Virus genome (UHGV): UHGV-1704341 | From: a virus | DNA length: 12,853 nucleotides | Strand: one strand, 5' to 3' | In this document: in pieces, positions 491 through 3,305 of the stretch | Position numbering within the stretch: position 1 is the first letter of the stretch | Layout: every line of letters begins with the position of its first letter | Made by a program: the position numbers and the translations under genes | Notes under the pieces: model-generated | Database searches by the model: none | What the model was told of the DNA's origin: nothing | The model's input: only the letters and a program-made list of their open reading frames with translations

Positions 491-1165
491 TTAGGTCTTT
501 ATTTTGTATCTTCTTGGTTTTCCCGAGAAAATCACTGTACCAATTATAGAGCAATTACCGTTGATCTTAATGTAAGGTTCAGGCCAGTTTGGGTTTAATG
601 CTTTGAGGTAACGCTGTGTTCCATCTTCTATCAACCGCTTGAAGGTGGTTTCGCCTGTATCGTGCATCAATGCAATAACGTCGTCACCGTGGCAGGCAGG
701 GACTTCAGGATCAACAAAAATCATGTCTCCTGGGCGGTACTCATCAATCATTGAATCACCAATCACCCGCAAGATATAAGTCATTTCACCACAGGGTACA
801 GGGCAGGGATAAGTTTCTGCTGTGCTCAAATCAACCTCAGAATAACCAACTTCTTTCCATGCTCCGGCCTGTACCCATGATATGACAGGGACTAACGTTA
901 TTTGTTTGTTAGTGATTGAAACATCAGGTTTTTTTGTGATGTTCGTTGTCTGGTGTTCTTGATCAAGCCATCCGACAGGCAGGTCGAAACATTTTTCGAT
1001 GTGCCGTGCCATGCTGTCACCGATATTTTTAGTTGCACCATCTCCCATAAACCTGCTGGTCTGGGTCGGCTCGCGATCAATCATGGTGGCAAAGGAAGAA
1101 TTCCCGCCAACACCATCTCTCAGTTTTCTGGCGTTAGACCGCCGGATGTCATGGACGGATGTCAT
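491..1165 (-). CDS. CI-type phage repressor (N-terminal DNA-binding region plus C-terminal S24 LexA-like peptidase domain)
   Basis: 224-aa ORF. C-terminal half carries the S24 autocleavage signature (VIGDSM, then an ...IFV.P... block) typical of CI/LexA/UmuD. N-terminal part ends ...LPVGWLD as in phage repressor HTH domains. Divergent to the Cro-like gene across an operator region. The start codon lies inside a 13-bp tandem duplication (see findings). Confidence 0.88.
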   Translation of the reverse strand: MTSVHDIRRSNARKLRDGVGGNSSFATMIDREPTQTSRFMGDGATKNIGDSMARHIEKCFDLPVGWLDQEHQTTNITKKPDVSITNKQITLVPVISWVQAGAWKEVGYSEVDLSTAETYPCPVPCGEMTYILRVIGDSMIDEYRPGDMIFVDPEVPACHGDDVIALMHDTGETTFKRLIEDGTQRYLKALNPNWPEPYIKINGNCSIIGTVIFSGKPRRYKIKT

Positions 1166-1168
1166 GGA
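1143..1168. repeat. Perfect 13-bp tandem duplication (cggatgtcatgga x2) spanning the repressor start codon
   Basis: Units at 1143-1155 and 1156-1168 are identical. Removing one copy puts the upstream ATG (minus strand, plus 1178-1176) in frame with the repressor body, giving MKTVHDIRRSNARKL... Confidence 0.85.
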
Positions 1169-1184
1169 CTGTTTTCATAATGAA

Positions 1185-1266
1185 ATTAAAACCCTTGTAC
1201 CGTTAAGGTACAAGTATCTTGAAGGTTCATTTTAATCATGTAATATGTACATCGGAGGTACATATT
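1185..1266. promoter_or_regulatory. Right operator/promoter region (putative PRM leftward, PR rightward, two palindromic operators)
   Basis: Palindrome cttgtacc-gttaa-ggtacaag (1194-1214) and palindrome aatatgtac-atcggag-gtacatatt (1242-1266); the second overlaps the Cro RBS. Putative PR: TTGAAG (1219-1224), 16 bp, TAATAT (1241-1246). Putative PRM on minus: TTGTAC (plus 1208-1213), 17 bp, TTTAAT (plus 1185-1190), placing the start site on the A of the ATG at 1178 (leaderless, lambda-PRM-like). Confidence 0.5.
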
Positions 1267-1268
1267 GT

Positions 1269-1382
1269 ATGAAAGCGTATTGGGACTCTTTAACCAAAGA
1301 ACAGCAGGGCGAGTTGGCCGGAAAAGTTGGCTCAACACCAGGCTACTTACGGCTGGTTTTCAATGGTTATAAACTGACTTAA
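1269..1382 (+). CDS. Short Cro-like HTH protein (37 aa)
   Basis: ATG at 1269 preceded by GGAGG (1254-1258). Product MKAYWDSLTKEQQGELAGKVGSTPGYLRLVFNGYKLT has an HTH-like core. First gene of the rightward operon, divergent from the repressor. Below the 60-aa cutoff of the ORF track. Confidence 0.5.
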   Translation: MKAYWDSLTKEQQGELAGKVGSTPGYLRLVFNGYKLT

Positions 1383-2354: not shown

Positions 2355-3305
2355 ATGAGCACTAAATTAACCGGCTATGTATGGGATGGTTGCGCAGCGT
2401 CAGGCATGAAATTATCCAGTGTGGCAATTATGGCCCGCCTGGCTGATTTCAGTAATGACGAAGGTGTGTGCTGGCCATCAATTGAAACCATTGCCCGCCA
2501 GATTGGCGCAGGGGTGAGTACTGTAAGAACGGCTATCGCACGGCTGGAAGCAGAAGGCTGGTTAACGCGTAAGGCGCGTCGCCAGGGTAACCGCAATGCG
2601 TCGAACGTCTATCAGCTTAACGTTGCAAAGCTTCAGGCTGCGGCACTTTCTCAACTGTCAGATTCTGACCCGTCAAAATCTGACGCATCAAAATCTGACC
2701 CGTCAAAATTTGATGCGTCGAAATCTGGCAAAAAAGCGGGTTTTCACCCGTCAGAATCTGGCGGGGATCCGTCAGTAAAATCAAAACATGATCCGTCAGA
2801 TAAAAAACCTTCTCGTCCGGACGCTTCGCAACCGGACACGCAGAAGGCTGAACAGGATTTTTTAACTCGCCATCCTGATGATCCTGATGCGGTTGTATTC
2901 AGCCCTAAAAAGCGCCAGTGGGGAACGCAGGATGATTTGACCTGCGCACAGTGGCTCTGGAAAAAAATCATCGCCCTGTACGAGCAGGCCGCCGAATGTG
3001 ACGGCGAGGTGGTACGTCCGAAAGAACCGAACTGGACAGCTTGGGCAAATGAAATTCGCCTGATGTGTGTACAGGACGGTCGTACCCACAAACAAATCTG
3101 CGAGATGTACAACCGTGTCAGCCGCGACCCGTTCTGGTGCCGTAACGTGCTCAGCCCGTCGAAGCTGCGGGAAAAATGGGATGAACTTTCCCTGCGCTTA
3201 TCGCCGTCCGTCAGCACGTACACAGAAAAACGCGAAGACCCGTACTTCAAAGCCAGTTACGACAATGTGGACTACAGCCAGATCCCGGCAGGATTCAGGG
3301 GGTGA
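2355..3305 (+). CDS. Replication initiator, lambda O-like (C-terminal domain similar to lambda O; distinct N-terminal domain)
   Basis: 316-aa ORF. The C-terminal stretch WGTQDDLTCAQW...NWTAWANEIRLM...DGRTH...FWCRNVLSPSKLREKW parallels the lambda O C-terminal domain as I recall it. A pentapeptide-repeat linker (SDPSK/SDASK) is encoded by the iterons. Confidence 0.85.
   Translation: MSTKLTGYVWDGCAASGMKLSSVAIMARLADFSNDEGVCWPSIETIARQIGAGVSTVRTAIARLEAEGWLTRKARRQGNRNASNVYQLNVAKLQAAALSQLSDSDPSKSDASKSDPSKFDASKSGKKAGFHPSESGGDPSVKSKHDPSDKKPSRPDASQPDTQKAEQDFLTRHPDDPDAVVFSPKKRQWGTQDDLTCAQWLWKKIIALYEQAAECDGEVVRPKEPNWTAWANEIRLMCVQDGRTHKQICEMYNRVSRDPFWCRNVLSPSKLREKWDELSLRLSPSVSTYTEKREDPYFKASYDNVDYSQIPAGFRG
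2665..2810. repeat. ori-like iteron array inside the O gene, followed by an A-rich tract
   Basis: Four 15-bp repeats (tctgacccgtcaaaa / tctgacgcatcaaaa / tctgacccgtcaaaa / tttgatgcgtcgaaa, 2665-2724) with internal dyad symmetry, three further ccgtcag repeats (2748-2799), then an A-rich stretch (2800-2807). Same arrangement as lambda ori within O. Confidence 0.6.

Follow-up and report, generated by a model that had tools for sequence, protein, structure and literature searches.

Leaderless mRNAs are known for a group of mobile-element repressors that includes lambda cI, e14 ymfK and racR. The classic example is the lambda cI mRNA made from PRM, a weak promoter whose transcription start is the A of the start codon. 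The 5'-terminal AUG of leaderless mRNAs is the signal recognised by 70S ribosomes (PMC4965119), and lambda cI is translated by ribosomes that recognise such an AUG (PMC4965119; PMC10491246). A much closer relative of the locus reported here is ymfK (cohE) of the K-12 prophage e14, which encodes an SOS-sensitive cI-type repressor. Transcription starts of E. coli K-12 were mapped by differential RNA-seq (dRNA-seq) by Romero et al. 2014 (PMC4681348), where e14 ymfK is among the five leaderless mRNAs listed and where, according to Table S3, its transcription begins at the first base of the gene, the A of its ATG (0-nt leader). The leaderless nature of this mRNA is already published for the orthologue.

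The present locus belongs to a stretch of viral DNA of 12,853 nt (UHGV virus genome UHGV-1704341; the whole stretch is called the window below), which spans immunity, early-right, lysis and terminase functions of a lambdoid prophage of the e14/SfV type. It shares with K-12 e14 ymfK the gene family, the divergent cI-cro layout and a LexA-family protein of 224 aa; across cI-cro the two DNAs are about 95% identical, and both promoter hexamers (-35 and -10) are the same. It differs from e14 ymfK by 13 additional bases, which occupy +24 to +36 in its mRNA, by a 5'-terminal AUG that no longer heads the repressor ORF, and by a truncated cro. The single-copy form carried by the relatives belongs to the leaderless repressor group, whereas the two-copy allele of the window lacks the feature of that group, a 5'-terminal AUG heading the coding ORF; compared with lambda cI, its start is displaced to +14. 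As detailed below, this duplication is probably a non-adaptive lesion, private to the window, in the 5'-terminal part of a naturally leaderless repressor mRNA.

The repressor, its putative operators and its PRM-like promoter

Homology searches with the 971 bases around the duplication revealed matches to ymfK (a LexA-family protein) and ymfT in 1,325 of the 5,426 complete E. coli genomes, as well as to the cI-cro region of SfV, SfIV, cdtI, Ayreon, 2H10 and Stx2c phages at 95-98% identity. These phages have the same cI, operators and cro as the window, at 95-96% identity, but their immunity regions are single-copy at the duplication site and retain an intact cro of 66 aa. Among the cI-type, LexA-like repressors, the gene falls into the ymfK/cohE group, of which it is an ordinary representative. 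Its product matched Pfam Peptidase_S24 over residues 93-212 (92.8 bits, cut-off 23.3), and its C-terminal domain is homologous to that of lambda cI (E = 2e-9), with TFKRL aligned over the lambda TFKKL that contains the catalytic Lys; the translation also has a GDSM serine motif and an Ala-Gly (QAGAW). Its N-terminal domain differs from that of lambda cI, and the operators differ as well. No Pfam HTH family matched residues 1-90 at E <= 0.01, and the presumed DNA binding is taken solely from the annotation of orthologues. In a clustering at 90% identity, the wild-type 224-aa repressor (L005:3489-4163) was grouped with proteins of which the representative (486 aa) and most members are cardiolipin synthase, which looks like a database clustering artefact.

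The cI gene, 675 nt long in all annotated relatives, and cro are divergent and separated by 103 nt in the window versus 90 nt in the relatives. The perfect palindrome at the promoter (Table 1) falls within the region annotated in SfV as 'putative operator region', and a second operator-like site was seen towards cro, giving two palindromic sites in the window compared with the three operators of lambda. Intact Cro gave weak matches to YdaS_toxin (27.9 bits, below the family cut-off of 30) and HTH_3, neither of which was recovered in a Pfam search of the truncated Cro.

The initial annotation had proposed a TTGTAC -35 and a TTTAAT -10 placed for transcription to start on the A of the ATG at 1178, and both elements were found where it had put them. 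There are 6 nt between the -10 and A 1178, so that the hexamer occupies -12 to -7 relative to this A, a geometry that would put +1 at A 1178 in the window. Both hexamers are invariant across the five sequences aligned; between the window and K-12 they are identical, and the sole difference from the -10 to the ATG is one base at -3. The PRM-like site was unlisted in a consensus promoter scan, its TTGTAC agreeing with TTGACA at 3 of 6 positions and scoring under the scan threshold. The accompanying claim of a leaderless PRM transcript stands for K-12 e14 ymfK, where it was established by dRNA-seq (PMC4681348), and we infer the same for the copy in the window.

Table 1. Features of the immunity region and the nine indels relative to the ECONIH1 prophage (window coordinates)
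Feature	Position	Strand	Details
cI-type repressor ORF (ymfK/cohE family)	491-1165	-	224 aa; ATG 1165-1163 recreated by the duplication
Copy 2 of the 13-nt unit, as transcribed	1143-1155	-	repressor mRNA +24 to +36, A 1178 being +1; + strand reads CGGATGTCATGGA
Copy 1 of the 13-nt unit, as transcribed	1156-1168	-	+11 to +23; holds ATG 1165, the new in-frame start
Short ORF from the ancestral start (1178-1176)	1149-1178	-	9 codons, MKTVHDIRP; TGA 1151-1149
PRM-like promoter	1185-1213	-	-35 TTGTAC 1213-1208; 17-nt spacer; -10 TTTAAT 1190-1185
Putative operator	1194-1214		perfect 8-5-8 palindrome CTTGTACC-GTTAA-GGTACAAG; overlaps PRM -35
Second operator-like site	1246-1262		TGTACATCGGAGGTACA; over cro promoter and leader; from repeat search
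cro/ymfT	1269-1382	+	37 codons; private 61-bp deletion, junction 1373/1374; 66 aa in relatives
Indel, +13	1143		tandem duplication; cI start
Indel, -61	1374 (junction 1373/1374)		cro reduced from 66 to 37 codons; no microhomology; ~200 nt from the duplication
Indel, +1 (C)	1672		ymfL, frameshift
Indel, +9	2872 (2872-2889)		perfect tandem duplication, ATCCTGATG; replication/HTH_36 gene, in frame
Indel, -33	8177 (junction 8176/8177)		terminator-like site, the sole one from Q to holin; T-tract lost
Indel, -16	9111 (junction 9110/9111)		Rz-type lysis gene, frameshift
Indel, -56	10388 (junction 10387/10388)		HNH endonuclease gene, frameshift
Indel, -25	10714 (junction 10713/10714)		small terminase gene (terS), frameshift
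Indel, +16	11908 (11908-11939)		perfect tandem duplication, GGCCGTGCTACGACAA; large terminase gene (terL), frameshift

The duplicated unit and the reading frames behind it

The tandem duplication of 13 bp described initially was recovered by two methods, namely Tandem Repeats Finder (1143-1169, period 13, 2.1 copies, 100% matches, unit CGGATGTCATGGA) and a separate repeat search, which returned two perfect copies filling 1143-1168. A perfect 13-nt tandem repeat is expected only about 2e-4 times per 12.8 kb (4^-13 per position), indicating that its presence in the window is not due to chance.

The consequences read from the sequence at the outset were likewise borne out. The ATG at 1178 now opens nine codons only, and the full-length repressor begins at the ATG at 1165, from which a minus-strand ORF of 224 codons reads MTSVHDIRRSNARKL... 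This is the only full-length repressor ORF, and its start at +14 lies inside the 9-codon ORF. Its product opens with MTSVHDIRR in place of the ancestral MKTVHDIRR, the protein being altered at residues 2 and 3 only (K2T and T3S); the remainder equals the ECONIH1 protein, with 0 substitutions relative to ECONIH1 within 491-1165. With one copy, the ATG at 1178 had been expected to open a continuous repressor ORF, and the five aligned relatives do show 224 codons from the equivalent ATG.

All five of these relatives (E. coli FDAARGOS_497, K-12 e14, phage SfV, phage Ayreon and ECONIH1) have one copy, the extra 13 nt being missing from each. In a megablast search with a 53-mer across the two-copy junction, designed so that only the two-copy sequence can seed, none of the 5,426 complete E. 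coli genomes was hit, while the corresponding one-copy 53-mer had 1,435 matching sites, spread over 1,321 of the genomes. A further 26 phage genomes matched the junction query only as far as the end of copy 1, and the 27-nt two-copy junction had no exact match in viral_contigs, genome_contigs (genome-representative) or metagenome_contigs. One copy is the ancestral, universal allele, which settles in the affirmative the question whether the single-copy form is the common one. Related intact phages with two copies, the finding named at the outset as contrary to the proposal, were sought among the same records and none was found. A natural polymorphism of a sub-lineage was also considered and rejected, given that every one of the nine indels of the window is missing from seven close relatives, whose identity to it is 99.7-100% once the indels are disregarded.

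Translation from the two-copy allele would be expected to be weaker, which is a plausible and reasonable reading in light of work on lambda cI and other leaderless mRNAs, and repressor synthesis should drop strongly if the allele is expressed. With the PRM-like promoter and the 5'-terminal ATG untouched, ribosomes recognising the 5'-terminal AUG would run into a frame broken after 9 codons and yield a 9-residue peptide. The K2T/T3S repressor could come only from internal initiation, which is inefficient without an SD, or from ribosomes that re-initiate once past the short ORF, and its output should fall sharply. None of the motifs GGAG, GAGG, AGGA and AAGG occurs in the 19 nt upstream of 1165 (TTCATTATGAAAACAGTCC, minus strand). 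Re-initiation would favour the out-of-frame AUG at 1152, since the ATG at 1152-1150 overlaps the stop of the short ORF (ATGA; AUGA in the mRNA). The first 79 nt of the mRNA folded no better than shuffled sequence (z = -0.06), and RNA structure was discarded as a reason for the duplication because folding of the leader is no better than that of shuffled sequence, be the extra copy present or not.

The two-copy transcript superficially resembles the 5'-uAUG mRNAs of E. coli (e.g. ptrB), whose upstream AUG binds 70S ribosomes and can either increase or decrease expression further downstream (Beck, Fleming and Janssen 2016; PMC4965119). Both have a 5'-terminal AUG, a short ORF and a main start downstream. 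In the 5'-uAUG mRNAs, however, an SD serves the main start, whereas the window has none and its main start falls within the short ORF.

These features bear on the unlikely possibility that the duplication is real in a living lysogen, in which initiation at the +14 AUG still supplies sufficient repressor for a hypomorphic allele to hold immunity. Such a lysogen could initiate without an SD on a short, unstructured, A-rich leader, or ribosomes entering at the 5' AUG could terminate at the UGA, 14 nt beyond the new start, and begin again close by. Consistent with this, the ORF is kept with only K2T and T3S changed, and the shuffled-like folding of the first 79 nt implies that the new AUG is not sequestered. 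The lack of a Shine-Dalgarno within 20 nt upstream of 1165 argues against this possibility, as does the position of the out-of-frame AUG at 1152, which is closer to the short-ORF stop than 1165.

Nine private indels and the state of the prophage

The initial annotation had taken the duplication for a single discrete change in a switch that works, a view that is not supported. Aligned with the intact prophage of ECONIH1, which is of a kind common in E. coli, the window (12.8 kb) carries 1 internal substitution and 9 indels (Table 1) and matches base for base elsewhere except at its noisy ends. The duplication is one of these nine private indels, and cro has lost 61 bp about 200 nt away from it; it reads for this reason as damage or sequence corruption and not as a tuned allele.

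Several of the other indels disrupt genes. With the additional C, ymfL, which in relatives encodes a Phage_CP76-family protein of 185 aa, falls into two ORFs (1452-1721 and 1597-2010), and the product of the large terminase gene is reduced to 274 aa versus 577. The HTH_36 replication-type protein gains 3 residues (316 aa in the window vs 313). Within the same replication gene (2355-3305), a 15-nt unit, TCTGACCCGTCAAAA, is present in 4 1/3 copies at positions 2664-2727; these repeats are iteron-like, as in the lambdoid origin within the O gene, and are shared with relatives and outside the private indels. A GC-rich hairpin, GAGGCCGCC-TAC-GGGCGGCC, has lost its T-tract to the 33-bp deletion, which sets in exactly where the stem ends. 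In the relative this is the sole terminator-like site on the + strand between the antiterminator gene Q and the holin gene, and in the window no such site was found on the + strand from Q to holin; if the deletion is real, late-gene transcription would no longer be Q-dependent. The genes for Q, holin and endolysin are intact.

The context of the eight events of at least 9 nt was inspected for signs of slippage. Replication slippage needs short direct repeats at the borders of an event. Microhomology amounted to 1, 0 and 1 nt at the 13-, 9- and 16-nt duplications (array lengths) and to 0, 0, 0, 1 and 0 nt at the five deletions, and the short direct repeats expected of slippage, usually at least 3 nt, are missing at the borders of duplications and deletions alike. 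The duplication does not fit an origin by slippage for this reason. The only internal substitution is an A-to-G change at position 10705, 9 nt upstream of the 25-bp deletion. All seven natural relatives have A there, which, together with the distance of 9 nt to a deletion breakpoint, makes ordinary divergence an unlikely explanation for this substitution.

The remaining changes were as private as the duplication. None of the other eight indel junctions was present in the complete E. coli genomes or phage records searched, five indel-bearing protein products were not found among about 15 billion proteins, the 316-aa HTH_36 product with its 3 extra residues was not found in protein collections, and four products were not found in a 153-billion-gene index. 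As a positive control, the single-copy repressor was recovered on at least 1,000 contigs and the untouched KilA-N protein in 2,022 blocks. Over the same 2.5 kb, moreover, FDAARGOS_497 differs from ECONIH1 by 3 substitutions and 0 indels and K-12 by 299 and 5, compared with 0 and 4 for the window, so natural relatives show the opposite, substitution-heavy spectrum to the indel-only one of the window.

The ends of the window are noisy: base 2 is unlike that of any relative, and the 18 final bases (12836-12853) are a G-rich, degraded form of the relative's sequence, GGCGGGGGGGGGGGGCAAGGTAC vs GGCGGTTGGCAGAGCCATGTTGTAC. This pattern resembles low-quality two-colour Illumina read tails at a contig end, suggesting that the window is a whole contig.

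Origin and meaning of the duplication

Spontaneous change in E. coli consists mainly of substitutions and of 1-nt indels in homopolymer runs, and larger slippage events form between short direct repeats. Nine medium-sized, repeat-independent indels with one substitution, at about 0.7 per kb, are not what natural decay produces, nor do they match the typical errors of short- or long-read sequencing. The same density across a genome would leave no viable cell, and the events must therefore be confined to this region or not be biological. To our knowledge, no E. coli process gives perfect 9-16-nt tandem duplications together with 16-61-nt deletions at such a density in one region. As judged from these sequence patterns, the set of nine indels most likely arose when the sequence record was produced or altered, and the physical reality of the duplication is doubtful. 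It is less likely that a physically real but dead or dying prophage is represented.

Two observations count against this assessment. The contig-end-like last 18 bases argue that real sequencing data underlie the record, and the preservation of a full-length repressor ORF by the duplication is exactly what selection for repressor in a living lysogen would demand. The living lysogen considered above gains from both the resemblance of the window ends to a real short-read contig and the intact Q, holin and endolysin genes, given that a real lysogen without repressor would be expected to die. Given these same lytic genes, on the other hand, a living lysogen would be expected to suffer from weak repressor synthesis and from the lost terminator T-tract; it would have to tolerate this loss at the only terminator-like site from Q to holin, and nine indels with one substitution are an abnormal spectrum for mutation in vivo.

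Alternatively, all nine indels may be real and due to one localised, microhomology-independent process (e.g. end-joining after repeated breakage of the prophage), with the duplication as a by-product. The clustering of nine indels with 0-1 nt of microhomology and one substitution within 10.8 kb fits such a process, as does the location of that substitution 9 nt from a deletion breakpoint at a position where the seven natural relatives share another base. We nevertheless regard this process as improbable, because none of the nine indels was found in the other public sequences searched and no mechanism is known to us that would produce such an indel density in E. coli. Its combination with a surviving lysogen, which would draw its repressor from the SD-less AUG at +14 behind the 9-codon ORF, is considered very unlikely.

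Least credible is an adaptive allele, selected for lower repressor translation and shifting the induction threshold of the prophage, for which only the preserved ORF and the untouched promoter and operators speak. None of the 1,435 E. coli copies or 26 phages carries the allele, and in the window cro is destroyed and ymfL, Rz, HNH, terS and terL are frameshifted, so that there is no lytic programme left to tune. The adaptive reading is effectively refuted by this context, and a selected 'tuning' allele retains a minimal chance at most. Whether the indels are a product of the record or of a dying prophage, the duplication is not an evolved tuning of repressor translation.

For the interpretation of this prophage, features of the window that rest on the indels, including the truncated cro, the T-tract-less terminator and the frameshifted lysis and terminase genes, should be read as biology only with read support. 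If the two-copy allele is real, it would provide a natural test of the dependence of a leaderless mRNA on a start codon at its very 5' end, and of whether a 5'-terminal short ORF can feed ribosomes to an SD-less start 13 nt downstream.
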